A stretch of 64,000 bases of DNA. It comes from Nitrospirota bacterium. Its GTDB lineage: Bacteria; Nitrospirota; UBA9217. The notes under the pieces are model-generated. The model was not told where the DNA came from. It saw only the letters and a list, made by a program, of their open reading frames with translations, and did not search any database. The stretch covers positions 608,001-672,000 of the forward strand of contig CAWFSF010000002.1 of the NCBI GenBank assembly GCA_963818475.1, read 5' to 3'. A program made the position numbers and the translations under genes. Shown piece by piece: positions 10,267-62,167 of the stretch. The first letter of the stretch is position 1; the number at the start of each line of letters is the position of its first letter.

Positions 10267-12511
10267 TTATCCCAGCCCCAGCAATCTACCACCTTGATAA
10301 ATGGCGAACGCAACGACCCATGCCAGCACCATCTGATAGGCAAAGGCGATGCCGAACCACTTCCACGTCCCGAACTCCTGCTTCATAGCGATGGCCACGA
10401 CCACGCACGGCATATACAGCAGGACGAAGGTGATAAACGCATAGGCGCTGAGCGGGGTAAATTGCCCCTTGATCACCTCCCGCAACGGCGAGCGTTCCTC
10501 CTGTTCCTCCGATGATTCCTGCGCAGTAATGCTTGAGATGCCGATTCCGGAAACAACGTTGACGGCTGAATCACGAAGAGCATCGACAAAGCTTGTTCCA
10601 ACCTCTTTCACCTCCTCGGCAAAGGTCGGGGTTTCTTTCTTTTCCTCCTCCGTCTTGGGCACGTAGATCTCGCCCATGGTGCCTACCACGATCTCTTTTG
10701 CAATGAGTCCCGAAACCAATGATGATGCTGCCTCCCAGGTGCCGAACCCGAGCGGCGCCAAAGCAGGCGCGATCACCTGGCCCGCCCTGCCGAGGTAGGA
10801 GTCTTTCCTGTGCTCCACTCCCCACGGCAGGTTCAGGAGGAACCATACGAGGATAGAAACGGCAAGAATATAGGTTCCGGCCTTGATCAGGAAGTGCTTG
10901 CCTTTCTCCCAGGTATGGATCATCAGGCTCCGAAAGGACGGCATGCGGTAGGGCGGCAGTTCCATGATGAACATGGGGGCCTCACCTTTGAACAGCGTCC
11001 ACTTGAAAATTATGCCCATCAGCACGGCAAGCGCGATCCCCATGACATAGAGCGACCAGAGAACCGTTCCGGCATAGGCGCTGAAAAAGACACCGATGAA
11101 CACGACATACACGGGGAGACGGGCGCCGCAGGACATGAGCGGTATGAGAAGCGCCGTCAGCGCCTTGTCACGCTGATTTTCCAGCGTCCGCGTAGCATAA
11201 ACAGCGGGAACATTGCAGCCGAAACCCAAGAGCATCGGGATAAATGATTTTCCATGGAGGCCCATGGCGTGCATCGCCCGGTCCATCACGAATGCTGCCC
11301 GCGCCATGTATCCGCTGCCCTCCAGAAAGGTGATAAAGAACATCATGGCAAATATGACGGGCACGAAGACCAGCACGAAACCGACGCCGGCGATGATACC
11401 GTCGGTTGCAAGGGAGATCATCCAATCCGAGGCGCCCGACGAGGCCGAGAAGCGCTTCCGCCCACCGCTTGAAGGGTCCTGCGGTCATGGCGTCTATCCA
11501 GTCGACAAATGGCGTTGATACGTCGAAGGTGAGCTTGAACATGAGCCACATGGCTCCCAGAAAAATAGGAATGCCGAGGAAACGGTTCAGCACGAACCGA
11601 TCGATCTTTTCGGTCAACTCTTTCTTTTTTATTTCCGGTTTGCGAAGCACCTCACGGATCAATCCGGCCGCCTGCGCATACCGTGCATCAGCCATCAACG
11701 TCTCTATGTCTGACTCATGGGCTTCCTCCAAATGCGCAGTTGCCTGCTTCACCACTGAATCGATGCCGGCCAGGTTGATCTCATTCAAAACCCGCTCATC
11801 GCTCTCCATGATCTTGAGTGCCAGCCAGCGTTTTGGATATCGCTCAACCAGTCCCTGATGAATGCCGATGACCGCTTTTTCCACAGCCGATGCCGCCGCC
11901 TCAACGTCTTCTCCGTAATGCAGGTCCTTGGGACGGCGCGCAGTATCAGCGGCTGTTTCCAGCGCAGCTTCCAAAAGATTCAGAAGGCCGGTCTTCTTCG
12001 TGGCCACGGTCGGGATAATGGTTGCCCCGAGCATCTGCTCCATCGCTTTTACATCGATCTTGTAGCCTTTCTGCTCTGCCTCGTCGTAGATGTTCAGCGC
12101 GATGATCATGGGGATTCCCAATTCCATGAGCTGGACCGTGAGGTACAGGTTTCGCTCGAGATTCGTCGCGTCCACGACGTTGACGATCACGTCGGGGCGC
12201 TCGTGCACCAGGTAGTCCCGGGCGATGATCTCTTCCTGGGTGTAAGGGCTCAGGCTGTAGGTTCCGGGCAGGTCCACCAGTTTTACCAGCTGGTCGCCGT
12301 ATTCAAACTGCGCTTCTTTCTTTTCCACGGTAACGCCCGGCCAGTTGCCCACATGGAGCCGTGTTCCCGCAATGGCATTAATGAGCGTGGATTTCCCGGA
12401 GTTTGGATTTCCCGCCACCGCGATGGTGACGGACTTTTTCGCGACTGCCAGGCTGCAAATCCGCGGATTGCCTCTGCTTTTAATTCCGCTGTTCACTGTC
12501 GCATTGCGCAC
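10267..12511 (-). CDS. feoB: Ferrous iron transporter FeoB (frameshift near 11430; start uncertain)
   Basis: GNPNSGKS, VGNWPGVTVEKK, DLPGTYSL in the first frame; EGSGYMARAAF, GFGCNVP, CGARLP, LYMPC in the second. Confidence 0.92.
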
Positions 12512-40603: not shown

Positions 40604-40694
40604 AACAGGCGGTGTTCTGCGCTTTCGGTATCGGACTTCATATTGCGGTACAACCAGGAAACGACAAACTGCTTTTCGGATGCGGGAGGAAGAG

Positions 40695-41430: not shown

Positions 41431-41445
41431 TGACCGGAAAATGCT

Positions 41446-42742: not shown

Positions 42743-42752
42743 CGAGGTCAAT

Positions 42753-44057
42753 ATGTTTATGTCGGAGATCTTAACCGTCAGGCTGGACATAAAAAATCCG
42801 GACGCAGCAGCCGCTTTGCATGAGGCCGTTTCCGCGGTCCCGGGTTTCTTCATCGGAGGCAACGGGAGCGCGCGTTACGACGTCCTGTTTCTGGAGATCG
42901 GCTATGACCTGGTTGAGGAATTCAAGCTCCTGGAACAGATCCGGGCGAAAGGCCTGGCCAGGCACATCTTCCTCACGTCGTTGCGCAAGGACCCGGACGT
43001 CCTCTTAAAGGCGTTGAAGACAGGAGTGCAGGAGTTTTTCCTCCAGCCGCTCGATAAGGATGAGGTCATCGCGTCCTTAACGAAACTCAAAAAGTGCGCA
43101 GAAGTGGAAGGCCCTCAAAAGGCGCCCGCGAAAAGGGGCATGATCATCACTGTTCTGGGAAGCAAGGGCGGCGTGGGATCGACCACCACGGCCGTGAACC
43201 TTGCCGTCTGCCTCAAGGCGGTGGAACGGAACAAGTCCGTGGTCCTGATGGATATGAACCCCGTCCTCGGCGGCGTCCATCTTTTTCTCGACACCAAAAC
43301 CTCCTTCAGCTGGACCGAGGGCGCCCGCGACATCGAGCGCATGGACTCCACCTATCTGCTGAATACCCTCTGCAGGCATGACACGGGAATTCATGTCCTT
43401 CCCGCTCCCTCGAAGCCGGTGGGGCTTGAGGAGGCGACCCCCGAGACCATGGAACGGCTCGTAGGTCTCATGCGGTCCACGTTCGACATTATCGTGATGG
43501 ACGGGTGCAGGTCCTTTGACGATCTGTCGCTCACGATGCTCGATCTTTCAGACATGATCCTGGTGGTCTCGGAGCTGAACCTTCCCTCGCTCGTCAACGC
43601 GAAGAAACTGCTGGAGACCTTCGATGGTCTGGGCCTTTCCTTTGGCAAGGAAATAAAGGTCGTCATCAACCGGTATCAGAAAAAAACGATGCTCTCTCCC
43701 GCGGAAGCGGAAAAGACCCTAGGCAGGAAGATCGTCGCCATGATCCCGAATGACTATGAGACGACCATGTCGGCCATTAATACGGGAAAAACCATTTCGG
43801 ACATGAAATCGGACATCATGGAGCATTTCAAAGAACTGGCCGTCCTGCTTCTCCATAAAGAAGCCGCCAGGAAGGAAAGGACGTTCGCGTCGCTGGAGTT
43901 CATCAGGAAAAAATGGAAGACTCTTACGCGGTCCGACGGCAAACCGCTGCAATCAGACGGCATACCGCTCAGAAAACCGGCTGCCGCGCCCCGTCGAACG
44001 GAAACGGTCACTCAGGAAAGAATCCTTGTTCCCTCGAAATTCAGCGGAAAAAAGTAA
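42753..44057 (+). CDS. cpaE: CpaE/TadZ (receiver-like + MinD-type ATPase)
   Basis: KGGVGSTTTAVNLA; N-terminal REC-like domain. Confidence 0.88.
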   Translation: MFMSEILTVRLDIKNPDAAAALHEAVSAVPGFFIGGNGSARYDVLFLEIGYDLVEEFKLLEQIRAKGLARHIFLTSLRKDPDVLLKALKTGVQEFFLQPLDKDEVIASLTKLKKCAEVEGPQKAPAKRGMIITVLGSKGGVGSTTTAVNLAVCLKAVERNKSVVLMDMNPVLGGVHLFLDTKTSFSWTEGARDIERMDSTYLLNTLCRHDTGIHVLPAPSKPVGLEEATPETMERLVGLMRSTFDIIVMDGCRSFDDLSLTMLDLSDMILVVSELNLPSLVNAKKLLETFDGLGLSFGKEIKVVINRYQKKTMLSPAEAEKTLGRKIVAMIPNDYETTMSAINTGKTISDMKSDIMEHFKELAVLLLHKEAARKERTFASLEFIRKKWKTLTRSDGKPLQSDGIPLRKPAAAPRRTETVTQERILVPSKFSGKK

Positions 44058-44089
44058 GACTTATTTAAAACGTCTTTGGGAGGTAGGAG

Positions 44090-45463
44090 ATGCGGGAAAT
44101 CAAAGGAGCGGGAGCTGTGCTGGATGTCCAGGGATTTCAAAAAGTCCCTCACCCTGCGGTCAGTCAGGGCTTTGTGTCGACCAACGAATACCAGGAACTG
44201 AAGACCGCTGTCCAGAACAGGCTCCTGGATGTTATCGACCTGAGGCTTCTGGAGACCGTCGAAAAGAGCCAGCTCAGGCAGGAGATCAGAAGGCTCGCCG
44301 AGCGCTTGCTCTCCGAAGTAAAGATGAACGTGCCGCTCAACTTCGAGGAGCGTGAAAAGCTTCTGAAGGACATCGAGGACGAGGTGATGGGCCTGGGGCC
44401 CCTGGAGCCCTTCATGCACGATCCGACGGTGTCGGACATTCTCGTCAACACCTACCGCCAGCTCTACGTCGAGCGGCGCGGAAAACTGGAGAAGACCGAG
44501 GCCCGCTTCAAGGACGACGCGCACCTGCGCAGGATCATCGATAAGATCGTTTCGGCCGTGGGACGGAGGATCGATGAATCGAGCCCCATGGTGGACGCCC
44601 GCCTTGCCGACGGTTCGCGGGTGAACGCGATCATCCCTCCTCTGGCGATCGCCGGGCCGATGCTCTCGATACGGCGCTTCGCCGTGGACCCGCTCGAACT
44701 CGAAGACCTGATCGGCCTGAAAACGCTGACGCCCGAACTGGGAGACCTTCTCAAGGGCATTGTCCGGGCGAAGCTCAACGTGATAATATCCGGCGGCACC
44801 GGCACCGGTAAGACGACGTTCCTGAACGTCCTGTCCCGCTTCATACCCGCCGACGAGCGGGTCGTCACCATTGAAGACTCGGCCGAACTGCAGATGAAGC
44901 AGGAACACGTCGTGAGCCTGGAAACGCGGCCCGCGAATATAGAGGGCAAGGGCGAGATCACCGCGCGGGACCTGGTACGAAACAGCCTCCGCATGCGGCC
45001 GGACAGGATCATCGTGGGCGAGGTCCGCAACAGCGAGGCCGTGGATATGCTGCAGGCCATGAACACGGGCCACGACGGCTCCCTGACCACCATCCACGCC
45101 AATTCGCCCCGCAACGCCCTCATGCGCCTCGAAACGATCGTGGCCATGGCCGGGCTGAATATCCCGAACGAGGCGATACGGAAGTACATAAGCTCCGCCA
45201 TCAACGTGTTCATCCATCTTACCCGTCTCGTCGACGGGACGAGAAAGGTCGCGAGCGTCCACGAGGTCGTGGGCATGGAAGGCGACGTGGTGACGATGCA
45301 GGAGATCTTCGCCTTCGAGCAGACTGGCGTGGACGATAAGGGCGCTGTCAGGGGCAGGTTCGTTGCCCGGGGGGTCATGCCCAAGTTCATCGAGCGCTTC
45401 AAGGTCATGAACATCCCCGTGCCCTATGAGCTTTTCGATGAAAACAACGTCATGAAGATCTGA
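44090..45463 (+). CDS. tadA: Tad secretion ATPase CpaF/TadA
   Basis: [38 protein letters not shown]. Confidence 0.96.
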
Positions 45464-45573
45464 GCAGGACCGCCCTGCTCAGAGGGCGATCCGCCGTTAT
45501 TGTGTCCAGCTGCGTTTATCAGGTACCAGTCAGCCGATGATCGAGATCATCGCAGCAGAGCGAGGTAAGAACA

Positions 45574-46539
45574 ATGGAGATCGTGATCGGGATCGGGGTT
45601 TTTATTTTCACCTTTCTTTTGATTTATCAGGGCTATTTCATCGTTAAAAGGATCTACCAGCCCGAGCTGAAAAAAGTTCAGGGACGGCTGAACAGTTTCT
45701 CGCTCTCCGGAAACCGCTCCGAAGCGGTGAATATCCTGAAAAAAAAGACGCTGAGCGAGATCCCCTGGCTGAACGAGATGCTCCTGAATATTTCCGTTGT
45801 CGATCGGCTCGAACGGCTGCTCGTCCAGGCCGGTTCGCACCGGCCATCCGGATTTTTTCTGATTCTTGCGGCTTTGCTGTTTATTTCCGGGCTTCTGCTG
45901 TCAGCGGTTCTCAGGATAAACGTTTTTATCATGGTGCTTCCCGCGGCCTTTCTGGCAGCGACCCCCTTTCTCTATCTTTTTAATGAGAGAAAAAAAAGGA
46001 TCGAGAAATTCGAGAGGCAACTGCCCGAAGCCCTCGAACTGCTCTCGCGGGCCCTTAAGGCCGGACATGCCTTTACCAGCGGCTTGAGAATGGTGGCCGA
46101 TGAGTTCGGCGATCCGATCGGCACGGAATTCGGAAAAACACTCGATGAGATCAATTTCGGAGTCGGCGTGCCGGAAGCCTTGACGAATCTGACCCGACGC
46201 TCGGACTGCGAAGACCTTAAGTTTTTCGCCGTCTCCGTGATCATCCAGAGAGAGACCGGAGGCAACCTGGCGGAGATACTTGAGAACCTGGGCCGCCTGA
46301 TGCGCGAGCGCTTTAAGTTCCATGGGCGGGTGAAGGTCCTTTCCGCTGAAGGCAGGGTATCGGCAAGAGTGCTTGTGGCAATACCGTTTTGCGTAGCCGG
46401 GCTCTTTTCCCTGCTCAGGCCGGAATATATAAAAATACTGTTCTCTGATTCCATTGGAAGGGTTCTGGTCGCACTGGCCGCGATCCTGATGTGCTTCGGC
46501 ATTTATGTGATGAAAAAGATGGTCGCTATAAGAGTGTAA
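45574..46539 (+). CDS. tadB: TadB platform protein
   Basis: QLPEALELLSRALKAGH, IQRETGGNLAEIL, SAEGRVS. Confidence 0.92.
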   Translation: MEIVIGIGVFIFTFLLIYQGYFIVKRIYQPELKKVQGRLNSFSLSGNRSEAVNILKKKTLSEIPWLNEMLLNISVVDRLERLLVQAGSHRPSGFFLILAALLFISGLLLSAVLRINVFIMVLPAAFLAATPFLYLFNERKKRIEKFERQLPEALELLSRALKAGHAFTSGLRMVADEFGDPIGTEFGKTLDEINFGVGVPEALTNLTRRSDCEDLKFFAVSVIIQRETGGNLAEILENLGRLMRERFKFHGRVKVLSAEGRVSARVLVAIPFCVAGLFSLLRPEYIKILFSDSIGRVLVALAAILMCFGIYVMKKMVAIRV

Positions 46540-46620
46540 CGCAATTCGTCCTTTTTGTGACCAAGGCGGTGACGAGGCGGGGTTTTTCTCCGGGACAAGG
46601 AGAGAGAACAGGGCGAAATA

Positions 46621-47559
46621 ATGAACATCGGTCTTTTGATAGCGAGCATGGTCTTTGTACTGACCGCGCTTCTGGGCTTTCTGGTGTTCTATTATGCGAA
46701 TTTTTTTAGCCGCAGGCAAAGCATCCGGGAGAGGATCAGGAAAGAGGCTGCGACCGGCGGGAGCGAAGTTTTCTCGAGGGAACGGAAGAAACGGAGTTTG
46801 CTCCTGCGCGCGGCAGGCTGGTTCGGAGAAACCGTCAGGCCGAAACTGGTAAAGGAAGAGTATCTTTCGAAAACACGTGAAAGGCTCTTGAGGGCTGGAT
46901 ATTACAGTGAAAAAGATCCCGTCGTCTTTTTCGGTGCAAAGGTTTTCCTGGCCCTGTTTTTTTCTCTCTTGTGCATGATAGTGTTCTCGGTCCTGCAGGG
47001 CTTGCCGATCCGATTTTTTCTAACGCTCCTCCTTGTTTTTCTGGCAGCGGGCTTTTATCTTCCCGATGCTTATCTTTACCAGCGAACGCGGCACCGGAAA
47101 AGAAAGATCTTCGAAGGGTTCCCCGATGCACTGGACCTCATAGTCATCTGCGTTGAGGCCGGCATGGGGATCGACGCGGCCGTCAGGAGGGTGGGCGAGG
47201 AGGTGGCGTTGAAATGCAAGGTCCTGAGCGATGAGCTCACGATACTGAGCCTGGAGCTCCAGGTGGGCAAACCGCGGGCGGAAGCCCTGCGAAACCTCGC
47301 CATGAGGACGGGCCTTGACGAGGTGGCAAGCCTCGCGTCCCTGCTCCTCCAGACTGACAAATTCGGCACCCGTGTGGCACAGGCCTTGCGGGTGCATTCT
47401 GAGTCGATGAGGACAGAGCGATATCTGCGGGCCGAGGAGCTGGCCGGCAAGCTGCCGGTAAAATTGGTTTTTCCGCTGATTTTTTTCACCTTCCCCGCTC
47501 TTTTTGTGGTCATCGTGGGTCCGGCAATAATCAGGGTCTTCAGGGACCTTCTCTCGTAA
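46621..47559 (+). CDS. tadC: TadC platform protein, copy 1
   Basis: FPDALDLIVICVEAGMG, QTDKFGT, AEELAGKLPVKL. Confidence 0.92.
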   Translation: MNIGLLIASMVFVLTALLGFLVFYYANFFSRRQSIRERIRKEAATGGSEVFSRERKKRSLLLRAAGWFGETVRPKLVKEEYLSKTRERLLRAGYYSEKDPVVFFGAKVFLALFFSLLCMIVFSVLQGLPIRFFLTLLLVFLAAGFYLPDAYLYQRTRHRKRKIFEGFPDALDLIVICVEAGMGIDAAVRRVGEEVALKCKVLSDELTILSLELQVGKPRAEALRNLAMRTGLDEVASLASLLLQTDKFGTRVAQALRVHSESMRTERYLRAEELAGKLPVKLVFPLIFFTFPALFVVIVGPAIIRVFRDLLS

Positions 47560-47637
47560 GTATCCGAATGGGCAGCAAGGGCATGCTGGTCTGAACGCCA
47601 GTTGAAGACGTTGTTGACGATAAAGGGGAGCGAAAAA

Positions 47638-48570
47638 ATGGACAACGATTATTTGATAGCAGGTTTGATGTTTATCCTGATCATGCTTCTGGGGTTGCTT
47701 GCGCTTTATTATGCGAATCGCTACAAAAGCAAAAAAGACATCCGTGAAAGGATCCTTGAGACAACGCCCGGAAATACCGAAGGCCCTTCGAAGGACGGGA
47801 AACGGGGGATTTTCCTGAAAACCGTAAGCAGGTTTGGTGAAGCAATAAGTCCCTCCAGCAACGCCTCTGTCTCACAGACCCGGAAAAAGCTTCTGACGGC
47901 GGGATACTACGGGAACAACGATCCCCTGCTCTTTTTCGGTGCAAAGGCATTCCTGGCGCTTTTCTTTACCGCGTGCAGTGTGATTCTCAAACTAGCGGTC
48001 GTGAAGGCGCTCCCGGCACCTTATTTCCTGGTCCTCATCCTTGTTTCCCTTGCAGCGGGCTTTTATCTGCCCGATGTGTACCTCTATCAGAGAACGGAAG
48101 TCCGGAAGAGAAAGATCTTCGAAGGGTTCCCCGATGCACTCGATCTCATGGTCGTGTGCGTCGAGGCCGGCATGGGTCTTGATGCTGCCATTAAGCGGGT
48201 GGGCGATGAGATGGCGCTTAAGAACAGGGTCCTGAGCGATGAGTTCAAGATCTTGAGCCTCGAGCTGCGCGTGGGCAAGCCGCGGGCTGAGGCTTTGCGG
48301 AACCTCGCTATGCGGACGGATCTCGAAGAGGTGTCGGGCCTCGTAGCCCTGCTCCTCCAGACCGACAAATTCGGCACCAGGGTGGCGCAGGCCCTGAGGG
48401 TGCATTCCGATGCGATGAGAACGAAGCGATACCAGCGGGCCGAGGAGCTGGCCTCCAAGCTGCCCGTAAAGATCGTCATCCCCCTGGTATGCTTTATCTT
48501 CCCCTCGCTCCTGGTGACCATTGTCGGACCGGCAATAATAAGGATCTACAGGGTGCTTATTCATGCGTGA
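47638..48570 (+). CDS. tadC: TadC platform protein, copy 2
   Basis: FPDALDLMVVCVEAGMG, QTDKFGT, AEELASKLPVKI. Confidence 0.92.
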   Translation: MDNDYLIAGLMFILIMLLGLLALYYANRYKSKKDIRERILETTPGNTEGPSKDGKRGIFLKTVSRFGEAISPSSNASVSQTRKKLLTAGYYGNNDPLLFFGAKAFLALFFTACSVILKLAVVKALPAPYFLVLILVSLAAGFYLPDVYLYQRTEVRKRKIFEGFPDALDLMVVCVEAGMGLDAAIKRVGDEMALKNRVLSDEFKILSLELRVGKPRAEALRNLAMRTDLEEVSGLVALLLQTDKFGTRVAQALRVHSDAMRTKRYQRAEELASKLPVKIVIPLVCFIFPSLLVTIVGPAIIRIYRVLIHA

Positions 48571-49510
48571 AAGGATGTGGCACATGATTAAAAAAATGAT
48601 GCGAAAGATTATTCTTTTCTGTTTGGCGGCAATGGTTTTACTCTCCGGATGCGCAGCCAAAAGCGCGGGCGATCTCTCAAAGAAATACGGAAATCCCGGT
48701 GAGCGGAGAATGCTGACTGCCGACGGCAAAAAGACCGACGAGGTCGTGATCACGGCGGGAGAATATGAGAACCTCGGGGACAGCAGCCTCAAGCGAGGCG
48801 ACATTTCCACGGCCTTTATAAACTACACCCGGGCGCTTCAAATGGAGCCCGGGAGGCTGTCGGCCTCGTATAAGACGGGAAGGTTGTTTTTGCTTAAGGG
48901 CATGACGGGTGAAGCGCGGATCGAATTCGAAAAAATGATAAAGAAGGACCCGAAAGACGCCCGGGCCCATGAGGCCCTGGGAAGGGCATATCTTCTCGAT
49001 GGCGACAACGAGCAAGCCATCAAGCATTTTACTACGGTCCTCGGCATAAACGAGCGACTTTGGGAAACCCATAACCTGCTCGGCATTGCCTATGACCGGC
49101 AGAAGAAGTTCAACCTGGCCGTTGACCATTACAAAAGGGCGATCTCGATAAAGCCCGAAGCAGGCGTCGTATATGGCAACCTGGGGGTTTCCTACTACCT
49201 GAATGAAAAGTATGGTAAGGCCAGAGACGCCTTCGTCACCGCGATCGAGAAGGGAGAGGATGGAAGCAGGGTTTACAACAACCTTGCGGTCACCCTGGCG
49301 AAACTGGGCAAATATCGCGCGGCCTATAAAGCCTTAAAAAAGGCAGGCAGCGACGCGACGGCACAGAACAACATCGGCTATCTTTACCTGCTTGACGGGA
49401 AAAACAAGGAGGCCGTGCTGGCCTTTGAAAAAGCCATCGAATTGAATCCGGCCTTTTACGCTAAGGCCCATGAGAACTTGAAGGCGGCCAAAGCTGCCCT
49501 GCAAGAATGA
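48563..49510 (+). CDS. tadD: TPR lipoprotein, TadD-like pilotin
   Basis: Lipobox LSGC; multiple TPRs; end of tad cluster. Confidence 0.75.
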   Translation: MRERMWHMIKKMMRKIILFCLAAMVLLSGCAAKSAGDLSKKYGNPGERRMLTADGKKTDEVVITAGEYENLGDSSLKRGDISTAFINYTRALQMEPGRLSASYKTGRLFLLKGMTGEARIEFEKMIKKDPKDARAHEALGRAYLLDGDNEQAIKHFTTVLGINERLWETHNLLGIAYDRQKKFNLAVDHYKRAISIKPEAGVVYGNLGVSYYLNEKYGKARDAFVTAIEKGEDGSRVYNNLAVTLAKLGKYRAAYKALKKAGSDATAQNNIGYLYLLDGKNKEAVLAFEKAIELNPAFYAKAHENLKAAKAALQE

Positions 49511-50297: not shown

Positions 50298-50336
50298 GCC
50301 GCACAGATTTAGCAACTCATGAACAAGGAGAATACA

Positions 50337-50738
50337 ATGGGCAGGATCATCGCAATCGTATCACTCATGGCAGCACTGCTGACAACGGGCCTGGCTCTGG
50401 CCGGCGATCAGGCGGCGCCGCTCAGCACACAGGAGCTCAAGCAGGTCATCGGCTCGAACAAAAAAAGCACGCTCGTTTTCTTCCAGAATCCCATGGGCGG
50501 GCCCTGCAGGGCGCAAAAGGAGGTCCTGCAGAAGCTCCAGCAGGACAGAAAAAACAATTTCAACATTGCCAACGTGAGCACCATGAAGCCCGAGGACCAG
50601 AAGGCTTTTTATGATTACGGCATCAGGAACCTGCCGATGCTGGTGCTGGTGGACAAGAACGGCAAGATCAGCCGCGTCTTCTCCCCAGGGATCCAGAGCT
50701 ATGAGACTCTGACCGCGGCGCTGGACGGACTCCGCTAG
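50337..50738 (+). CDS. Exported thioredoxin-fold protein with single Cys (GGPC)
   Basis: Signal peptide; LVFFQNPMGGPCRAQ; YGIRNLPMLVLVD..G. Confidence 0.75.
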   Translation: MGRIIAIVSLMAALLTTGLALAGDQAAPLSTQELKQVIGSNKKSTLVFFQNPMGGPCRAQKEVLQKLQQDRKNNFNIANVSTMKPEDQKAFYDYGIRNLPMLVLVDKNGKISRVFSPGIQSYETLTAALDGLR

Positions 50739-51379
50739 TGGAATTCGGCCTGGCGAACCTTCTGCTTGCAGGGAGTGCGGGGCTGGCGAGCGTGCTCTCG
50801 CCCTGCGTGCTTCCCGTCATCCCGGTCATCATGGCAGGGGCGGACCAGAAGGACCGTCTCCGCCCCCTGCTGGTGGTCCTGGGGCTTTCCCTGACGTTCA
50901 TGGCCATGGGAGCAGTCTCGTCCCTCTTCGGCTCGCTGCTGATCGGCCGCACGCGCTATATCGAAGTGGCAGGCGCGCTGGTCATCATGCTCATGGGCTT
51001 TATGGTGCTGTTCGACGTCAGCATCTTCAAGCGGCTCTATCGACTTTCCAATATACCGGTGAAGGCCGAGGGCAGGTTCGGCGGCCTGGTCCTCGGCCTG
51101 GCCCTCGGGCTGGTCTGGGTCCCCTGCATCGGGCCGTTCCTGTCAAGCATCCTCACCATGGTCGGCACCAGCGGCCAGCTCGTGCCCGGCATCATTCTGC
51201 TCGCGTTCTATTCCCTCGGCCTCGGCATCCCCATGCTGGCGGTGGCCTACTCCTCCCATTTGTTGCAGAGCAGGCTCAGGGGGCTGTCGCAACATGAGGC
51301 GATCCTCAGGTATGTTGCAGGAAGCATTCTCATCGCTTACGGCCTCTATTCGATCCTTGCAGGGAACCTCGCTTTTTAG
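50738..51379 (+). CDS. ccdA: CcdA/DsbD transmembrane disulfide-exchange protein
   Basis: SPCVLPVIP and WVPCIGPFL; about 6 TM. Confidence 0.9.
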   Translation: MEFGLANLLLAGSAGLASVLSPCVLPVIPVIMAGADQKDRLRPLLVVLGLSLTFMAMGAVSSLFGSLLIGRTRYIEVAGALVIMLMGFMVLFDVSIFKRLYRLSNIPVKAEGRFGGLVLGLALGLVWVPCIGPFLSSILTMVGTSGQLVPGIILLAFYSLGLGIPMLAVAYSSHLLQSRLRGLSQHEAILRYVAGSILIAYGLYSILAGNLAF

Positions 51380-53149: not shown

Positions 53150-54457
53150 ATGATGCAGAGCAGGTCACTACACCGCGACCTTCCGTTGATCCAGGATGCC
53201 GACCTGCAGGGCAAGATCGTCCTCGTACGGTTCGATCATAATGTCGTGAAGAACGGCGCCATCCGCGATCCCTTTCGCATCGACCGCACCATCGGCACGC
53301 TCTTCCACATCGTGGAACGGGGCGGCAGGCCCATCCTGATGACCCATGTGGGCAGGCCAAAGGATAAAAAGACCGGCGCCATCACCTGCAGGCCCGAGGA
53401 ATCCGTTGAACCGGTGGTGCGCTATCTCGAACAGAAGCTGCATACGAAGCTTTATGTTCCCTCCTTTCCGCACGATCCGCTCCAGGGCATCAGCGGAATC
53501 GACACGTCCATCAATCTTGCGGTGCGGGACCTGCGGGAACGGAAGATCGGCGGGATCTACCTTCCGAATACGCGGTGGTTCCGGGGCGAGGAGGCCGATG
53601 GCGATCTCCGGGAGCGCTTCGCGCTGCAGCTTGCCGGCCTGGCCGACATCTATGTGAACGACGCCTTCGGCTCCTGGCAGCCCCATGCGTCCACGTTCAA
53701 CATCACCCGGCATCTGCCGTCCTGCGCCGGCTTTTTGCTGCAGCAGGAGATCATGCACCTCGAAGGCGTCATGGCACCCGAGCGGCCCTTCCTTGCCGTG
53801 GTGGCCGGAGCAAAGTACGATACCAAGATCAGGCCACTCAATGCCCTGTACGACAAAGTGGATCTCCTGGTTCTCGGCGGCGTGATCTACAATACCTACC
53901 TCTGCGCCAAGTATCAGGTGCGGATCAAGGGCGTGAGCGACGAGGACGTTGCCCTGGCACGGGAACTGGTAGAAAAGGACCGCGGCCGGAACAAGATCGT
54001 CGAGCTGCCGCTGCTCGTCGAATCAGATGCGGCCGAAGGAAGGACCGAGGGGAAATACCGGACCATCTCCATCAGGGACTTCAAACCGGGCAGCTCCTTC
54101 GGCTTTGTCATGGACATCGATCCCCGGTCCTTTGAAGAACAAGGCGTTGCCCGGGCCATCGGCACGGCAAAGACCATCTTCGTCAACGCGGTCATGGGAT
54201 TCACGCCGCACTTTGTCGCCGGCTCCCAGGCGCTCGACAACACCATCGACCAAAACCGTGAAGCCATGAAAATGTACGGCGGCGGCGACACGCTTCAGGA
54301 GTTCAAGAGCCTGCTGCCCGGCCTGTACCTTTCGGTCATGGATGACGCAAGCTATTACTTTTTCACCGGCGGCGGTACGGTGCTTACGGCTATCGAACGC
54401 GGCAGCCCCTACAGCCTTGAGCCGGTCCAGGCATTGATGGAAGCGAAGAGGAGATGA
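53150..54457 (+). CDS. pgk: Phosphoglycerate kinase (divergent type)
   Basis: LVRFDHNV, MTHVGRP, YVNDAFG, AGAK, GGGDT, TGGG. Confidence 0.85.
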   Translation: MMQSRSLHRDLPLIQDADLQGKIVLVRFDHNVVKNGAIRDPFRIDRTIGTLFHIVERGGRPILMTHVGRPKDKKTGAITCRPEESVEPVVRYLEQKLHTKLYVPSFPHDPLQGISGIDTSINLAVRDLRERKIGGIYLPNTRWFRGEEADGDLRERFALQLAGLADIYVNDAFGSWQPHASTFNITRHLPSCAGFLLQQEIMHLEGVMAPERPFLAVVAGAKYDTKIRPLNALYDKVDLLVLGGVIYNTYLCAKYQVRIKGVSDEDVALARELVEKDRGRNKIVELPLLVESDAAEGRTEGKYRTISIRDFKPGSSFGFVMDIDPRSFEEQGVARAIGTAKTIFVNAVMGFTPHFVAGSQALDNTIDQNREAMKMYGGGDTLQEFKSLLPGLYLSVMDDASYYFFTGGGTVLTAIERGSPYSLEPVQALMEAKRR

Positions 54458-54481
54458 AGGAGGCCTTCGGGGAGGAGCTTT

Positions 54482-54640
54482 AAAACTAAAAAGGACCTTT
54501 GGACACGGATCAGGTCGGATAAGAACCGGATAACGGCGGATTTTCTTTTGACGGGGGCTCACTCTTGTGGATAGATGGTTCTTTGCTTATCCGCCCTTAT
54601 TCGTCGTTCATCCGATTTGATCCGTGTACAAATGCTTTTG
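54482..54640. repeat. Family A element, reverse orientation
   Basis: TTTGGACACGGATCAGGTCGGATAAG...ATCCGTGTACAAATG; left arm is the reverse complement of the right arm at 24575-24630. Confidence 0.65.
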
Positions 54641-54657
54641 TGTAGATTTATGCGACC

Positions 54658-55257
54658 TCAGCGACGCCGGGCTAGCTTCAACCGTCTGGCTCCTTTTTCT
54701 GCCGCCTCTTCCACCAGCCGTCCGCAACCCTCGCCGTAGACAAGCTCGATAGCTTCAGTAAAGCTTGCGCTGATGGACCTCGATCCTTTCCGCTTCGGGG
54801 CATTGCAATGAAAAAGAAGCGCATCGTCAGTGAGCGACAAGGCCTCCGCGCCCTCGGAAAAGATCATGGGCCAAAGCAGACAGGCTTTCGGCTTCACCTG
54901 CGCAAGCGGGATCCCGCGCTTGAGTGCGACCGTATGCAGGGCGCACTGGATCTTTCGCCGGGTCTTATAAGCGAACAGGCAAAGCCCGTCCTCGGTCGTG
55001 TCGATGGCATAGAGGCCGGGCTCCACGTACTCGAACACATTGTCGTATCCATCATCCGTTTCGAGAAGAGGGCAGAGCTTCACCACCTCGGGCATGATCC
55101 GGATGATCCGGCGCATTTCAGCGGCAGTAACGCAGACCTCATAGGTCGAACAGCAGCAGCGCTTGCCTGATCCGCAGCCATTGCAGTCGTGCTCAACAGA
55201 GCAAAGAGACGCGATGTCGGTATCCACGGGAGCGAAGCCCTTGTCTTTTGTTTTCAT
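54658..55257 (-). CDS. CxxCxxCC (YkgJ/DUF3109-like) Cys-cluster protein
   Basis: CNGC....CCC, GLCLF, CALH, KPKACLLWP. Confidence 0.75.
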   Translation of the reverse strand: MKTKDKGFAPVDTDIASLCSVEHDCNGCGSGKRCCCSTYEVCVTAAEMRRIIRIMPEVVKLCPLLETDDGYDNVFEYVEPGLYAIDTTEDGLCLFAYKTRRKIQCALHTVALKRGIPLAQVKPKACLLWPMIFSEGAEALSLTDDALLFHCNAPKRKGSRSISASFTEAIELVYGEGCGRLVEEAAEKGARRLKLARRR

Positions 55258-55434
55258 AAATCCTTATCTGAAATTAATACGGTATTATGGATTCCAATGC
55301 TCTTTGGCAACGGATCAGGTTTGACGACTGAAGGTTGAAGGCGAAGAATAAGAGCTATGGATGTTTAAAAAAGCACTTTAATTGGACGACTACGTATCGT
55401 GGTTGTTTTTCCTGAATAACTTCAGTCTTCAGCC

Positions 55435-57998
55435 TCAGCACCTGTAATTACCTTCCCCCGGCCTCCGCTCCTGCCCCATAATCCGCTGCAGCTCTTCGCT
55501 CAACTCATCCATGGTATAGGGCTTGACGATGATGCCGGCAAACCCGTACCAGGCGTAATTGGCCATGACCGCGTCATTCGAGTACCCGCTCGAAACAATG
55601 GCCTTTGCAGCCGGATCAAACTCCAGCAGGTCCCTAATGGCGTCCTTGCCTCCCATTCCACCGGGAATGGTGAGGTCCATGATAACGACGTCGTACGGGG
55701 CTTTCGAGGATCTGGCCTTCTTGAACATCTCGATCGCGGTTGTCCCGTCCGCGGCAAAATCCACCGAGTAGCCAATGAGGTCCAGCATGACGCCCGCTGT
55801 TTCCCTGACGATCTCATCGTCATCCATCAACAGTATCCGGCCCGTTCTCTTTTCATCCGAAGCGGCAACGAACGGCGGGACAGCAGGCACTGCATGTTCG
55901 GAAGAGGCTGGCAGAAAGATCGTGAAGGTGGTGCCGGTCCCCGGGTCGGACTCCACGTCGATCGCCCCTTCATGTTTTTTGACGATCGAGTACGTCGTTG
56001 CAAGCCCGAGACCGCTGCCGCCTTCTTTTGTCGTGAAGTAGGGCTCGAATATCCTTCCGATCAGCCCCTTGGGGATCCCCCGCCCGGTGTCCTGAACGAT
56101 GATGCTCACGTAGGTTCCCGGCTTCAGGTCCTGAAGCCCGGCCGGCCCTACCGTGGCGTTTCGGCCGGTGATAAGGATGGTGCCTCCCCGGGGCATTGCC
56201 TGCACCGCATTGACGACCAGGTTGCTGATGACCTGGCTGATCTGGCCCTCATCGATCTCAGCGTCCCACAGATCTTCCGGCAGGGAGAATTCGCAGCGGA
56301 CACCGGAGCCCCGTGTGCCGAAGTCGGCGGTATCGCGGATAAGGTCCCCTATGGCGGCCAGTTTTTTGACCGGCGCTCCTCCTTTTGAAAAGGTGAGGAG
56401 CTGCTGCGTCAGTTCTTTCGCACGGGTCGATGCTTTTTCCGTGCGCACCAGGCTTTTGTACACCTCGCTCTCCGGCGCGGAGTACTTTTTGCCGATATCG
56501 ATATTGCCGATGATGGCGTTCAGCAGGTTGTTGAAATCGTGCGCAATGCCGCCGGCCAGTACGCCCAGCGATTCGATCTTTTCGGACTTGTTGATCCGGT
56601 CCTCCAGCCTTTTCCGTTCGGTGATGTCGCGAAAGACCAGCACCGTGCCGGACATTACGCTGTCCTTGTCCATAATGGGGGCGACGCTGTCCGTGATGAT
56701 ACACCGTGAACCGTCGCGCGAAACGAGGAGGGCTTGCCCTTCGAGTTCGCATGCCCTGCCGGTCCTGAGCACCTGTTCAACCGGGGTGATGCGCGCCTCG
56801 CCGGTCTTTTCGTCCTGCAGTGGAAAAACATCCTTGATCGGCCTGCCCCGTGCCTCGCCCTGCTTCCAGCCCGTAAGCCGTTCGGCGACCTTGTTGATCA
56901 GCACCACGTTCCCGTTGATGTCGGTGGTGATGACGCCGTCGCCGATGCTCCGGAGGGTCACGGCCAGCTGCTCCCGCTCGGCAGCGACCATGGTCTCGAT
57001 GCGCTTGCGCTCCGTGATGTCGCGGAAGATGCCGCGCGTGCCCATGAACTTTCCGCCCTCTGCGATGGCGCTTACATTGCCCTCGACCACGATCTTGCCG
57101 CCCTGCTTCGTGATGAAGGTGGTCTCGAACCGGCCGTCCTTGTCCCCGCAGACCACGCTCTTGAACTCGGGGCCGCAGTCCGTGCACTCCGGATGGAGCA
57201 GATCGAAAATGGAGAGTCGGCACTGCTCTTCTTCCTGGTAGCCCAGCGTATCTTTCCAGGCCTTATTGACATAGCGTATGGAGCTGTCCGCGCCCAGGAC
57301 CTGGATGAGGTCCGTTGAATTCTCAAACAGGTCGCGGTACCGCTCCTCGCTCCGCCGCAGTTCCTCCTGGGCGAGTATGCGCTCCGTCATGTCCATGTAC
57401 ACCAGAACGATCCGTGACACAGCGTCTGCTTTGTCCTTGACGGGCGTGGCCACCGTATTATAATGGCGCCCGTCCAGGTCCATGTCCTGCTGGCAGCTCC
57501 TGCCCGTTGCAACGGCTCTCCTGCCCGGGCAATCCTTGCGGTTCTCAACGTGGCAGAGCAGTTCGTGGCAGAACCGCCCCGCTGTTGCGCTCCGGTCAAA
57601 TTGGAACTGCTCTTCGATCTTTTTATTCCAGGCAATGACGCGCATTTCCCGGTCCAGGACCAGAATGCCCATGCCCGCGGAATCGAAGATGGCCGTGATC
57701 TCGTCGTGGGCCGTTCTGAGCTGTTCGTTCGTTTCCTTCACGTTCCGCAGGATCTGCGAAAAGAGTCGCTCACAATGCCGATGGGGTCAAGCTCGATCAG
57801 GGTCGCATCATCCAGCTCCTCGGGCTTGAGCTCTGCCGTGCCCATGACGGTAAGCAATTGGTTCACCTTCTGGCGGATATACTGCGTTGCGTTCGTGTAT
57901 TTTTCGCGCAGCTCCAGCACCTCCTGCTGGAGCTCCTCACGTGACCGAGGCGCCTCCTGCTCCCCCGGTGGTCCCTTTTTTTTCTTATTGCCCGCCAC
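55435..57998 (-). CDS. Cytoplasmic hybrid sensor kinase (unknown N-domain, 3 PAS, HisKA, HATPase, REC); frameshift at 57759-57762
   Basis: AGGIAHDFNNLL, EPYFTTK..GSGLGL, LMDDD/MDLTIP; one extra base in the A4 run joins the 86-aa and 768-aa ORFs. Confidence 0.88.
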
Positions 57999-58001
57999 CT
58001 G

Positions 58002-58244
58002 TCAATCCTTTTTACCTGAGATCACGATGCAATAGTATCCTTCTCTCTTTTCAATGGACACGCCATAGCCCATATTGGTCGCTGATTCTGGTATGGTGAT
58101 CGTGGCATCCCTGTTGTCGGTGAAGAAACAGAGCAGTACACTTCCCTGCCGTAGGCCCTCCGCCCGGCTGTTCACTTCCTTCAGCGCAACCAGAAGGGAT
58201 GACGGGCAGATCTGCCCCCGGATATCGAATTCTATGGTTTCCAC
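58002..58244 (-). CDS. TusA/SirA-family sulfur carrier
   Basis: FDIRGQICPSSLL...TDN....TIP.....MGY; AAGGAG RBS. Confidence 0.85.
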   Translation of the reverse strand: METIEFDIRGQICPSSLLVALKEVNSRAEGLRQGSVLLCFFTDNRDATITIPESATNMGYGVSIEKREGYYCIVISGKKD

Positions 58245-58341
58245 TCGTGCTCCTTACATGATTGTTCGTTCCTGACCATGTCGAAATGAAATATAAAAAA
58301 TCGATTTTTTAACTTTTGCCGGGGAATCGGTTCCCTCAGGT

Positions 58342-59478
58342 TCAAGCGGCCTTAGCAGGGCCTGCACCAAGGACCTTGATCAGGAGCATGCCGCCGATCA
58401 ATGCGCCTGCAAGCGTGCCGAGGAAAAAGAGCATGCTCGACATAGCCAGGATCGGCAGTCCGCCCATCAGGTGCCAGACGTTGCAAGTCGGCGCCATACG
58501 GGACGCCAGCCCCATGAGGGTCCCGCCTGTCGCGGCCAGCACGTATTGACGGGCCGGCACCTTGTAATAGAACTTCAGTTCGCCGAGCAGGGCGGCCGAG
58601 ACGGCGCTTCCGGCTATGATGCCGCCAATGAGCGGGAACTGGATCGCTGCCAGTGTATCGAACCGGGGCCCTACTCCGCCGGTCAGAACAGCATTGGTCA
58701 GGCGGTGGAGGAAGTTGAGCGGGACGGCCTGGTAAAAAACAAGTCCGTCATAATGGGAGGCGAACAGGGTACTCTCGACGAATCCGGCGATCTTGGTAAA
58801 GGAGGAGGTCACACCCAGGGGCATGCCGACCAGGACATAGGAAAGTGCGCCGATCAGAGAAAGCAGCAGGGCCGCTTTTGCAGGCTGCAGATATCCGGCG
58901 GCAAAGGCAGGCCGCACCAATTCGCCCTTCCGGTGCCACGAAAACAGAAGCAGGGCGCCGGGAACCATGACCGCCAGCACCGGGAGCAGGGGGTCGACAT
59001 TGAGCATCTGTGCGATGGTGACCTTGCCCGGCGCAAGGACCGTGCTTTTCGCAAAGGCCGCCCACGCCGGATGGAACTCGGCATAGAGCCCGCTGCCGAA
59101 AACCAGTCCTGCGAAGGCCGTCAGGCTCAGAACGCTGCCGGCGCCCATTTTATACAGCGTGCCGACGACGCAGCCTCCGGCAAAGACCATGCCGATGCCG
59201 AAGAGAAGTCCTCCGATCAGGTTCGCTGTGGTCGGCGGGTAGAGGAGCGGGAAGGGATAGGCGGACAGCAGCCCGGACTGGCGCGCGGCTTCGAACAGCA
59301 GCATGCTCGACAGGACCAGCAGGACAAAGGACTTGATCATTGCCGTACGCCTGAAAAGAAAGAGATCGCGGAACATGCCGGCCATGCAGAAATCAGACCG
59401 GTGCATCACGAACCCCGCGGCAAGGCCAAGCACCAGGGAAATGCTTCCGATAAAGATATAAGGGTCAGCAGCGAGCAT
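58342..59478 (-). CDS. YeeE/YedE family sulfur-compound (thiosulfate-type) transporter
   Basis: RSDFCMAG, FGIGMVFAGGC, LMGLASRMAPTCN; about 9 TM. Confidence 0.9.
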   Translation of the reverse strand: MLAADPYIFIGSISLVLGLAAGFVMHRSDFCMAGMFRDLFLFRRTAMIKSFVLLVLSSMLLFEAARQSGLLSAYPFPLLYPPTTANLIGGLLFGIGMVFAGGCVVGTLYKMGAGSVLSLTAFAGLVFGSGLYAEFHPAWAAFAKSTVLAPGKVTIAQMLNVDPLLPVLAVMVPGALLLFSWHRKGELVRPAFAAGYLQPAKAALLLSLIGALSYVLVGMPLGVTSSFTKIAGFVESTLFASHYDGLVFYQAVPLNFLHRLTNAVLTGGVGPRFDTLAAIQFPLIGGIIAGSAVSAALLGELKFYYKVPARQYVLAATGGTLMGLASRMAPTCNVWHLMGGLPILAMSSMLFFLGTLAGALIGGMLLIKVLGAGPAKAA

Positions 59479-59943
59479 CGTGGAGCTCCCCCATGCAGGA
59501 TCCGGAAGATTCCCTGTCGCGGGATTGAGAGAACCCGCCGACCTTTTCGCGATCAGAACGTACCTGCCCGTCCGGTTTTACAGTAAAATACAGCAATTCA
59601 TAGGCAGGAGCAAGATTTTTTATTCAGAAAGTTGCATAGTTTCATAGGTATCTTACGGCGGGCGGGAGGCGCAAACGGGAATCACCGGTGGCAACAACTC
59701 AATGGCAAGACGTCATTCCCTGTAACAAGAACATTTGGATACTGAAATATCGGGTTAGCTTCTGATCGTTTGGGCATTACTTGCAGAAATAAAGGGGGAC
59801 AAATGCAACCCGCGGCCTTGTCCTCGCAGATGAGACTGTTCGTGCTTTGCGCGGGGGGGAAAAATGTATCATGCGCGGTGTTGGTGAGGGGTGCTGTAAG
59901 TGCAGTTGGAATCAGGTGGACAGGGCGTGCTCCAAAGCTCGCT

Positions 59944-60129
59944 TCATGCATTGCAGGCGGCCCAGCTGCAGCCGACGCAGGTGAACTCGCCGCGCCCGTT
60001 CAGCTCACGCGTGCGGAGCGCGCAGATGTTCTTAGGCACTTGGTCTGCAAAGAGCTTGCAGTAGAGACTGCCGGCACCCTCCTGTGTATTCAGGCTCTGA
60101 TCAATGCTCTTCTGTTCACAGAGAATCAT
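59944..60129 (-). CDS. Small Cys-rich hypothetical protein (61 aa)
   Basis: Six Cys including CVGC; GAGAGGG RBS; promoter TTGACA-17-AATAAT at 60185-60213. Confidence 0.55.
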   Translation of the reverse strand: MILCEQKSIDQSLNTQEGAGSLYCKLFADQVPKNICALRTRELNGRGEFTCVGCSWAACNA

Positions 60130-60382
60130 GCTGGTCCCTCTCTTCCGGCGCTCCTGCCCGTCGCCAGAGTACGATATATGGCGTATTATTGATTCTCTGC
60201 AAGAAAATGTCAATCACCCGGTCAGGGTAATTTCAGGGTATGCCAGGCCTTCTAGTGTTGAGATCCGTTTTGGAGCAGGACAGCACCGTCTTAAAGCAAT
60301 TGTCGATCGGAACAGGGACCGCTCCCCCATCGATCCGCTGCTGGCTGATCAAAAACGCTTGTAGCGGTTGCCACAGTTTACC

Positions 60383-60412
60383 TTGACAAATCGACGGAAA
60401 ACGACATATTAT
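60383..60412 (+). promoter_or_regulatory. Sigma70 promoter with long structured leader
   Basis: TTGACA-18 bp-TATTAT. Confidence 0.55.
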
Positions 60413-60630
60413 TACATTTTTATGAAGTTCCGAAAAAGGCGTTCCTGATCAGGAGCTGTTCGTTTGGTTACGGAACGGAATACAATAACTGATTCCCGGA
60501 ATTACACTGATAAGGCCATGATTAAGAGGCAAGACAAGAAGATGTACCGTGTAAATCATTGTCTTATCGGTTTTTTTCAGTGTCAAAGACTTTGTCCTTG
60601 TGACGCAGAAACAGCGAGGTTTAACGCTTT

Positions 60631-61431
60631 ATGAACGTAATCGACTTCCACACCCACATCTTCCCGGACAATATCGCCAGGCAGGCCATGGATGCCCTGG
60701 CCGCGGCCTCCGGCAAGTACCGCCCCTGCACCGACGGGACGCTTAAGGGCCTGCAGGACTCCATGAAGCGGGCGGATATTTCGGCGAGCCTGGTGGCGAA
60801 CATCGCCACGAAACCGTCGCAAATGTACCCCATCCTGGAATATTGCGGGGAGATCCAGAGCAGCAGCATCCACCCGCTCGTCTCGTTCCATCCGTCCAAC
60901 TCCCCGGAGGAGGTCGAAGATATGCTGGGCCAGGCGCAGCGCGCTGAGATCCGCGGGGTGAAGCTTCACCCCATGGATCAGAATTTCAATATCGACGACA
61001 AATGGATGTACGGCTTTTATGAGCTGATCGCAAGCTGCGGACTCTTCCTCATGTTCCACAGCGGGTACGACATGGCCTTTCCCGGCAATACCCAGGCGGA
61101 CGTGGAGCGCATTAAAAAGGTCGCCGACTGGTTCAAGGACCTCACCATCGTCTGCACCCATGTGGGTGGATGGAAGCAGTGGGAGCGCATCAGCTGTCTC
61201 AGCAACTGCGCGAACGTGCATACCGAAACGTCCCTGACCCTGACCGAGGTGGACGACGAGGAGTTCATCCGGCTCATCGACCATTTCGATGAGGACCGGG
61301 TGCTCTTCGGGAGTGACAGCCCCTGGACGGACCAGCAGAAGATGCTGAAGCGGACCGTAGAGCTGAAGATCTCCGATGCGCGGAAGGAAAAGCTGCTGCA
61401 TAAGAACGCCGCTAACTTGCTGAAGCTGTAG
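60631..61431 (+). CDS. Amidohydrolase_2 family metal-dependent hydrolase
   Basis: IDFHTHIFP, GVKLHP, FHSG, THVGG, VLFGSDSPW. Confidence 0.9.
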   Translation: MNVIDFHTHIFPDNIARQAMDALAAASGKYRPCTDGTLKGLQDSMKRADISASLVANIATKPSQMYPILEYCGEIQSSSIHPLVSFHPSNSPEEVEDMLGQAQRAEIRGVKLHPMDQNFNIDDKWMYGFYELIASCGLFLMFHSGYDMAFPGNTQADVERIKKVADWFKDLTIVCTHVGGWKQWERISCLSNCANVHTETSLTLTEVDDEEFIRLIDHFDEDRVLFGSDSPWTDQQKMLKRTVELKISDARKEKLLHKNAANLLKL

Positions 61432-61465: not shown

Positions 61466-62167
61466 GTGCAAAAAGTACTTATTGCACAGGAACTTCATGC
61501 GTTATTGAAGCAGGAGAACAGCGTTCTCAACCGTGAGGAGTTTGCCATCTTCACAGCGGCTTCGAACGATGAATTACTGAATGTTCACCGGGCGGAGAAG
61601 GTGAGCCTCATCATCACGCAACTCGATATGCCCGGCATGCCGACAGAACAGCTCTGCTCCGTCATCAGAGACGAGCCAAGTCTCCGGGCGGTCCCGCTTA
61701 TCATGGTCTGCGGGAACGACCCTGCGGCGATCGAAAAGTGCTCACGATGCAAGGCGAACGCGGTGCTGCTGCACCCGGTTAATCCCCTCCTGCTGATCAT
61801 AACAGCGCAGCAGCTCCTCGATATGACTTCCCGGGACACCTGCCGCGTGCTCCTGAACGCCGACATCGAGGGGCGCTCCGGGGAAGACTGCTTCTTCTGC
61901 CGGTCCAGGAACATCAGTGCCACAGGCATTCTAATGGAGACCGACAGGATTCTTGCCAGGGGCGCACACCTGTCTCTCTCCTTCTTTCTTCCTGATGCGA
62001 AGCAGGTGCAAGTCACGGGTAAGATCGTGAGGACCCTTGCGCAGACGCCGGGTGAAAAGAGCAATCAATATGGACTGATGTTCACTGAGCTCTCTCCCGA
62101 GGCTAAAGAGCTGCTTAGGGAGTTTGTCGAAAAAAATTCGTTACCATCCCGTCCTGCCGCCTTGTAG
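61466..62167 (+). CDS. Pseudo-receiver + PilZ domain protein
   Basis: IITQLDMP receiver-like segment; RDTCR and NISATG. Confidence 0.8.
   Translation: MQKVLIAQELHALLKQENSVLNREEFAIFTAASNDELLNVHRAEKVSLIITQLDMPGMPTEQLCSVIRDEPSLRAVPLIMVCGNDPAAIEKCSRCKANAVLLHPVNPLLLIITAQQLLDMTSRDTCRVLLNADIEGRSGEDCFFCRSRNISATGILMETDRILARGAHLSLSFFLPDAKQVQVTGKIVRTLAQTPGEKSNQYGLMFTELSPEAKELLREFVEKNSLPSRPAAL

Follow-up and report, generated by a model that had tools for sequence, protein, structure and literature searches.

In the thiosulfate system TsuA–TsuB (YeeE–YeeD), TsuB/YeeD is reported to become persulfidated on thiosulfate cleavage (PMC11582611, PMC13047784, citing Ikei 2024) and YeeD to leave YeeE after thiosulfate binding (PMC13047784, citing Ikei 2024), as far as the available parts of these sources describe it. 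A signalling counterpart comes from Hyphomicrobium denitrificans, where the accessible sections of Li et al. 2024 (PMC11582611) present SoxT1B as a signal unit for SoxR and TusA as the likely acceptor, and, in the available text of PMC13478379, the three-cysteine PAS domain of NreB senses sulfide. Here we describe a set of genes for a YeeE-family transporter, a TusA-like sulfur carrier and a soluble PAS sensor (hereafter the cassette) in a stretch of 64,000 nucleotides from a Nitrospirota bacterium (assembly GCA_963818475.1, contig CAWFSF010000002.1, positions 608,001 to 672,000; hereafter the window). Bacteria that cycle sulfur and are only distantly related keep the trio together, a pattern suggesting that a sensor, and not a metabolic enzyme, receives the imported sulfur.

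The cassette occupies four open reading frames (ORFs) on the minus strand of the window, and the common orientation of yeeE, tusA and the kinase gene given in the initial annotation was borne out. The YeeE/YedE-family membrane transporter of 378 amino acids is encoded at 58342..59478 (PF04143, E 1.3e-45) and the small TusA-like carrier of 80 amino acids at 58002..58244 (PF01206, E 1.9e-11). The sensor gene follows in two parts separated by a frame break, a separate 86-amino-acid ORF at 57738..57998, which constitutes the N-terminal module (N-module), and a 768-amino-acid kinase ORF at 55435..57741.

Linkage of these genes was assessed by scanning 185,579 species genomes with an eight-sequence N-module alignment; 259 stretches matched, 195 were confirmed and the best 80 were kept with their flanks. 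These 80 loci were chosen by N-module similarity alone, and yeeE and tusA were then sought by tblastn with the window proteins. A TusA-like gene was found in 78/80 loci and YeeE in 75/80, as predicted by the initial annotation, which had set the absence of such linkage beforehand as a possible refutation. On the upstream side of L036 and L039, both among the YeeE misses, the contigs end. The sensor gene is immediately preceded by tusA on the same strand in 77 loci, with a median separation of 2 nucleotides (30 or fewer in 59/77, 100 or fewer in 76/77, with many 4-nucleotide overlaps), and natural TusA–sensor fusions were found in 0/77 of them. The order is permuted in L068 (L068:2645-6017), where the sensor gene is followed 20 nucleotides on by yeeE and then by tusA; L034, the nearest relative of L068 in the sensor tree, may share this order, and its contig ends 86 nucleotides past the sensor. 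Clustering of 803 flank ORFs gave no further family in more than nine loci, the nine-locus family being antisense to yeeE. Since no other flank family is widespread, the cassette is self-contained within variable surroundings.

While the channel and carrier genes are constant, the output of the sensor changes. Across the 80 loci, domain probes assigned the full sensor ORFs to kinases with a REC domain (30), kinases (10), GGDEF-EAL proteins (22) and short proteins without an output domain (7, several of them in visibly frameshifted assemblies), and among 11 sensor ORFs cut by contig ends, seven had none of these outputs, two had GGDEF, one a kinase and one GGDEF-EAL. In line with the initial expectation, the N-terminal domain is fused to outputs as varied as kinases and GGDEF domains, both in these loci and in the protein matches described below. 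Of 75 usable sensor N-termini, 68 entered a tree, omitting near-duplicates (L023, L035, L069 and L075), two sequences with no alignable PAS1 past the module (L020 and L047) and one frameshifted sequence (L049); at least four changes between kinase and GGDEF-EAL are needed on it, and well-supported branches force only one of them. The host records include Nitrospirota, Desulfobulbaceae, Desulfurivibrio, Desulfocapsa, Dissulfurispiraceae, Caldimicrobium and relatives of Geobacter and Desulfuromonas, together with Chromatiaceae, Ectothiorhodospiraceae, Thiobacillus, Sulfuricella (relatives) and Rhodocyclaceae. These groups are mostly sulfur-cycling. The TusA-like and sensor sequences of L036 and L069 are identical or nearly so, yet the two loci are labelled Desulfuromonadaceae and Chloroflexota; this clash is probably a binning artefact, and the Chloroflexota occurrence should for that reason not be counted.

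The closest precedent for the cassette is SoxT1B–TusA–SoxR. As far as it is described in the available text (PMC11582611), that system likewise has a YeeE-like protein that serves signalling and not bulk import, an adjacent TusA as proposed acceptor and conserved Cys residues in the receiver. In contrast, SoxR is an ArsR-type DNA-binding repressor, whereas the cassette has as its receiver a soluble PAS sensor that begins with a dedicated N-module and ends in a kinase or GGDEF-EAL output. No ArsR-type repressor was detected in a Pfam scan of 14 flank ORFs of the window, and no extra conserved family was found in the loci; the words kinase, two-component and diguanylate are absent from the SoxT paper (PMC11582611). 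A second comparison is offered by the YTD cluster of sulfur disproportionators (YedE-like, TusA-like, DsrE-like, Chp1 and Chp2), which, in the accessible part of PMC13047784, also places a presumed sulfur acceptor after yeeE–tusA and overlaps in taxa (Desulfobulbales). There the acceptor is a DsrEFH-like metabolic complex (PMC13047784), while the cassette has a signalling protein in that place, and no DsrE-like gene was conserved in the loci or present in the window flanks.

The N-module is covered by no model in Pfam or NCBIfam, in a scan of the 86-amino-acid ORF and of matched homologs, in agreement with the earlier failure to assign this region to a family. Used as a query against 1.84 billion representative proteins, the ORF gave 124 matches at E ≤ 1e-3, of which 52 reached E ≤ 1e-10 and none reached E ≤ 1e-30; almost all of the matches lie at the N-terminus of proteins of 55–1960 amino acids. 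Pfam domains of 83 of the 124 matches were tallied by hand, the 41 omitted being mostly short fragments; HATPase_c was present in 52/83 and GGDEF in 12/83 (10 with EAL), and the 19/83 with neither were short or truncated proteins and two probable noise matches (P0062 and P0119). The module is not strictly N-terminal, since one protein of 152 amino acids (P0001) carries two tandem copies and another of 518 amino acids (P0111) an internal copy (residues 200–258) after a GAF domain.

In a structural model of residues 1–205 of the orthologous sensor L001 (predicted local distance difference test score (pLDDT) 83.9, predicted template modelling score 0.60, with pLDDT only 65–78 across residues 40–80), a helix at 20–51 is followed by a conserved acidic loop at 52–63 and by helices at 64–70 and 72–107, the last running straight into PAS1. 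The N-module is thus predicted to be a helical hairpin. A Foldseek search of this model against the PDB returned PAS matches only and none for the hairpin; likewise, a profile search of PDB sequences gave no match for profile positions 1–65 and generic PAS matches for the remainder. Across 68 sensors, the invariant or near-invariant positions of the module are Y, R, K, Q, L, G, T, P, E and D, with no Cys among them, so that docking at the module is possible and persulfidation there is not.

Conserved Cys residues are found instead in the adjacent PAS domain. The kinase ORF encodes, all on the minus strand and by Pfam, PAS1 (57714..57367), PAS2 (57357..56992), PAS3 (56970..56608), HisKA (56559..56377, with the H-box His at ORF residue 401), HATPase_c (56253..55906) and REC (55836..55489, with the Asp-bearing stretch at about residue 689), and these domains together with the sequence identify a hybrid histidine kinase. 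Its PAS domains are Cys-rich, as first reported, with Cys58, Cys63, Cys71 and Cys83 of the kinase ORF in PAS1 (57487..57570, minus strand) and residues 186 and 189 in the HPECTDC motif of PAS2. The first three, spaced C-x4-C-x7-C, correspond to L001 positions 144, 149 and 157, where Cys is present in 49, 54 and 57 of 68 aligned sensors, and the L001 model places this triad in the helical part of PAS1. The absence of a transmembrane segment from the kinase also held, as no 19-residue window of the N-module and kinase ORFs exceeded 1.6 on the Kyte–Doolittle scale, compared with 10 such runs in YeeE.

Both genes upstream of the sensor encode members of known families. The transporter scores 156.8 bits against PF04143 (cut-off 27), but falls below the cut-offs of the TsuA equivalogs NF052577 and NF041049 (109.7 versus 400 and 58.9 versus 645) and of the YedE/FdhT selenium models NF033796 and TIGR04112 (98.2 versus 350 and 55.1 versus 200). 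Among solved structures it comes nearest to Spirochaeta thermophila YeeE (6leo, E 2.7e-23), with whose Cys residues its Cys31, Cys103 and Cys332 align, giving the three transport cysteines; these are kept in 59, 60 and 60 of 63 aligned homologs. A role in selenium metabolism was dropped, as scores were below the YedE and YedF cut-offs and the host taxa were taken to point to sulfur. The carrier scores 44.1 bits against PF01206 (cut-off 28.6) and has the conserved Cys of the family; its match to solved TusA-family chains is weak (3hz7, E 5e-4). The canonical TusA motif is CPxP. The carrier of the window has CPSS instead, as the initial annotation had noticed, at residues 13–16 (nucleotides 58197–58208), and in 65 listed homologs position +3 from the Cys is always occupied by S, T or C, never by P. 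In an alignment of 72 of 74 homologs of the carrier (two duplicates omitted), Q11, C13, P14, L18, M58 and G59 are invariant. The cassette shares with TsuA–TsuB (6leo, 8j4c, 8k1r) the two families, the gene order, the three transporter Cys and the carrier Cys, and differs from it in a transporter far under the TsuA cut-offs, a carrier with CP(S/A)(S/T/C) in place of CPxP and a sensor gene that follows. An association between an extra Cys in the carrier motif (CPxC) and an incomplete PAS1 triad (13/22 versus 7/43 in raw counts) was rejected as unsupported, with only three independent pairs on supported branches.

In the window itself, the hybrid kinase does not lie in one intact reading frame. 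The tusA stop codon (TGA, 58004..58002) is followed 3 nucleotides later by a GTG at 57998, and the spacing in the initial annotation was thus right, but this GTG opens the 86-amino-acid ORF and not the kinase ORF. Likewise, the stretch taken there as an 85-residue domain at the start of the kinase proved to be that separate ORF (57998..57738), which ends in TGA and is out of frame with the kinase ORF; the kinase frame is open only past a stop at 57789..57787, and the first start codon in it is GTG 57741. DNA alignment and frame translations show that the window lacks one base at about 57759..57763 (minus strand), beside a T run, relative to the orthologous loci L001–L003. L001 and L002 encode one continuous sensor protein of 849 and 844 amino acids, and homologs run continuously from the N-module into the helix preceding PAS1. 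For this window only, a true pseudogene or split gene, yielding a free 86-residue N-module peptide and a kinase that restarts at GTG 57741, seems somewhat unlikely: the break is present in the sequence as given, and the GTGA stop–start overlap would permit coupled re-initiation, but L001 and L002 are intact, the two parts total the length of L001 once the break is set aside (81 + 768 = 849 amino acids), and the close relative L003 has many frame breaks. Elsewhere in these 64 kilobases (kb) two other genes are split as well, for which reason an assembly indel is favoured and judged, from the sequence, considerably more likely than a pseudogene. These are feoB, in two overlapping ORFs (10267-12511, minus strand) with a frame switch near 11425-11445, where ORF 12511..11168 matches TIGR00437 positions 1–283 and ORF 11421..10267 positions 301–594, and a Flp/Tad pilus secretin gene (39155-40603, plus strand), apparently divided into ORFs 39155-39919 and 39965-40603, the second matching secretin profiles over their C-terminal part only, inside a tad-type pilus gene row at 38295-49510. 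Programmed frameshifting was dropped, there being no in-frame X XXY YYZ heptamer at the break.

Contact between carrier and sensor was modelled with residues 1–205 of the L001 sensor and the L001 TusA-like protein, both as alignments. The complex scored 0.52 (runs 0.52, 0.51 and 0.64), compared with 0.23 for the best of three controls, which amounts to weak support; between runs, at least 90% of contacts are the same, and the partner pLDDT is at least 84. The mark for this score was reached by 58/80 solved complexes and 2/110 mismatched pairs, while passes scoring 0.60 or less came from just 7 of those 80 complexes and from both of the mismatched pairs. Because synteny provides a strong prior, the prediction is counted as mild support; it is silent on which part of the sensor would contact TusA.

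The input is constant (channel, carrier, and module with Cys-bearing PAS), the output changes and no other neighbour is conserved, and for these reasons the cassette is read as a dedicated signal-input unit; from the sequences, we lean slightly towards the three genes forming a single transport-coupled sulfur-sensing input module. The genes, their conserved residues, the synteny and the varied outputs are observed; for the substrate, the loading of TusA, its contact with the sensor and the chemistry at PAS1, we infer the following route. Sulfur, as thiosulfate or sulfane sulfur, would cross the membrane through the YeeE-family channel, and the TusA-like protein, made in step with the sensor by virtue of the near-zero intergenic gap, would take up sulfur on its invariant Cys13. 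The loaded carrier would then meet the soluble sensor, where the N-terminal hairpin with its conserved acidic loop could act as a docking or dimerisation element and the three-Cys site of the adjacent PAS1 would receive or read the sulfur, with the change travelling down the long helix to the attached output, a hybrid kinase in the window and a plain kinase or GGDEF-EAL elsewhere. This mechanism extends steps reported for TsuB/YeeD and SoxT1B–TusA–SoxR. In its specific form, in which a dedicated YeeE-clade channel loads a dedicated TusA-clade carrier, which then docks on the hairpin and hands sulfane sulfur to the three-Cys PAS site, it is put forward tentatively, as something a little short of an even chance. 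The initial annotation had envisaged a relay ending in a signalling protein, with TusA docking on the kinase or persulfidating it; synteny, the varied outputs and the weak docking pass speak for this idea, but the N-module is not the persulfidated site.

Several observations weigh against the proposed relay. Of 65 tabulated rows, 20 have a PAS1 triad that is shifted or lacks a Cys, and 11 of those 20, almost all Pseudomonadota, have no Cys in the three triad columns, several of them with a CxC elsewhere. The complex score lies in a band in which most passes are false, except where the contact was probable beforehand. Linkage was established for the best 80 of 195 stretches only, found by two conserved peptide patterns, and because the scan relied on these patterns, more remote N-modules may lack the linkage. 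L034 and L078 have neither yeeE nor tusA upstream, with downstream flanks of only 86 and 254 nucleotides, L075 has TusA and no YeeE match, and the sensor gene of the window is itself broken.

In an alternative reading, the sensor would monitor the transporter: its hairpin would dock on YeeE from the cytoplasmic side, or on a YeeE–TusA complex, and read the transport cycle, while TusA would serve transport only and give no sulfur to the sensor. The N-module has no conserved Cys, YeeE is linked as well as TusA (two of its five misses among the 80 loci are contig ends), the solved YeeE–YeeD complexes 8j4c and 8k1r supply TusA with an established partner that is not the sensor, and the TusA–sensor prediction is weak, all of which would suit such co-sensing. 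However, it leaves the conserved PAS1 Cys unexplained, the tight tusA–sensor junction indicates that pair, and L075 retains TusA and the sensor with no YeeE match; we regard it as unlikely.

NreB raises the further alternative of a PAS1 cofactor. As described in the available text, it resembles the cassette sensor in that this PAS kinase is cytoplasmic, has three conserved Cys and is encoded in a sulfur-metabolism locus with the TusA homolog YrkI (PMC13478379, PMC9918477), and differs from it in Cys spacing and in having no N-module and no YeeE, with no close sequence relation detected. That the three PAS1 Cys hold an Fe-S cluster or a metal and sense sulfide or redox state alone, with yeeE and tusA present for supply or co-regulation, is quite improbable, for although the helical pocket region of a PAS domain harbours them and NreB of Bacillus licheniformis is reported to sense sulfide through a [2Fe-2S] cluster on Cys63, Cys66 and Cys78 (PMC13478379, available part), the spacing differs (C-x2-C-x11-C in NreB), the profile search yielded generic PAS matches only, and a dedicated N-module that has no conserved Cys and travels with yeeE–tusA through output swaps would go unexplained.

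If the relay through TusA to the PAS1 site is correct, the cassette would constitute a portable, output-agnostic input of extracellular sulfur to two-component and cyclic di-GMP (c-di-GMP) signalling in at least three phyla. To our knowledge, the sensing of external reduced sulfur by sulfur-cycling bacteria is known for a few repressors only. We class the cassette as a form of transport-coupled sulfane-sulfur signalling in which the sensor domain and the receiver classes are new: it would be a ready-made three-protein input to kinases and c-di-GMP enzymes alike, would define a sensor domain outside the Pfam and NCBIfam models and would give a function to two distinct clades, one TusA-like and one of YeeE. 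Full-text searches, with most subscription journals outside their coverage, found no description of a yeeE–tusA–PAS sensor set or of the N-module. Being compact and self-contained, the cassette is directly testable and could provide a part for a sulfur biosensor.

Around the cassette in the window, positions 54000-61000 gave no Rfam match at E ≤ 0.1, and a promoter and terminator scan found nothing peculiar to the operon ends. Downstream of the kinase gene, at a distance of about 4 kb, there is a thioredoxin-like gene with a DsbD-type membrane gene after it (50319-51379, plus strand), and a gene for a REC-PilZ protein (61466-62167, plus strand) is located 2 kb upstream of yeeE; neither the thioredoxin-like/DsbD-type genes nor the REC-PilZ gene is kept beside the cassette outside its closest relatives. 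Upstream of yeeE on the same strand is a Cys-rich ORF of 61 amino acids (59944-60129, minus strand), assigned to no family and found at 66–71% amino acid identity in L002 and L003 and nowhere else. Downstream of the kinase, an ORF of 199 amino acids (54658-55257, minus strand), which has no Pfam or NCBIfam match, is shared with L001–L003 only, at 79–81% identity.

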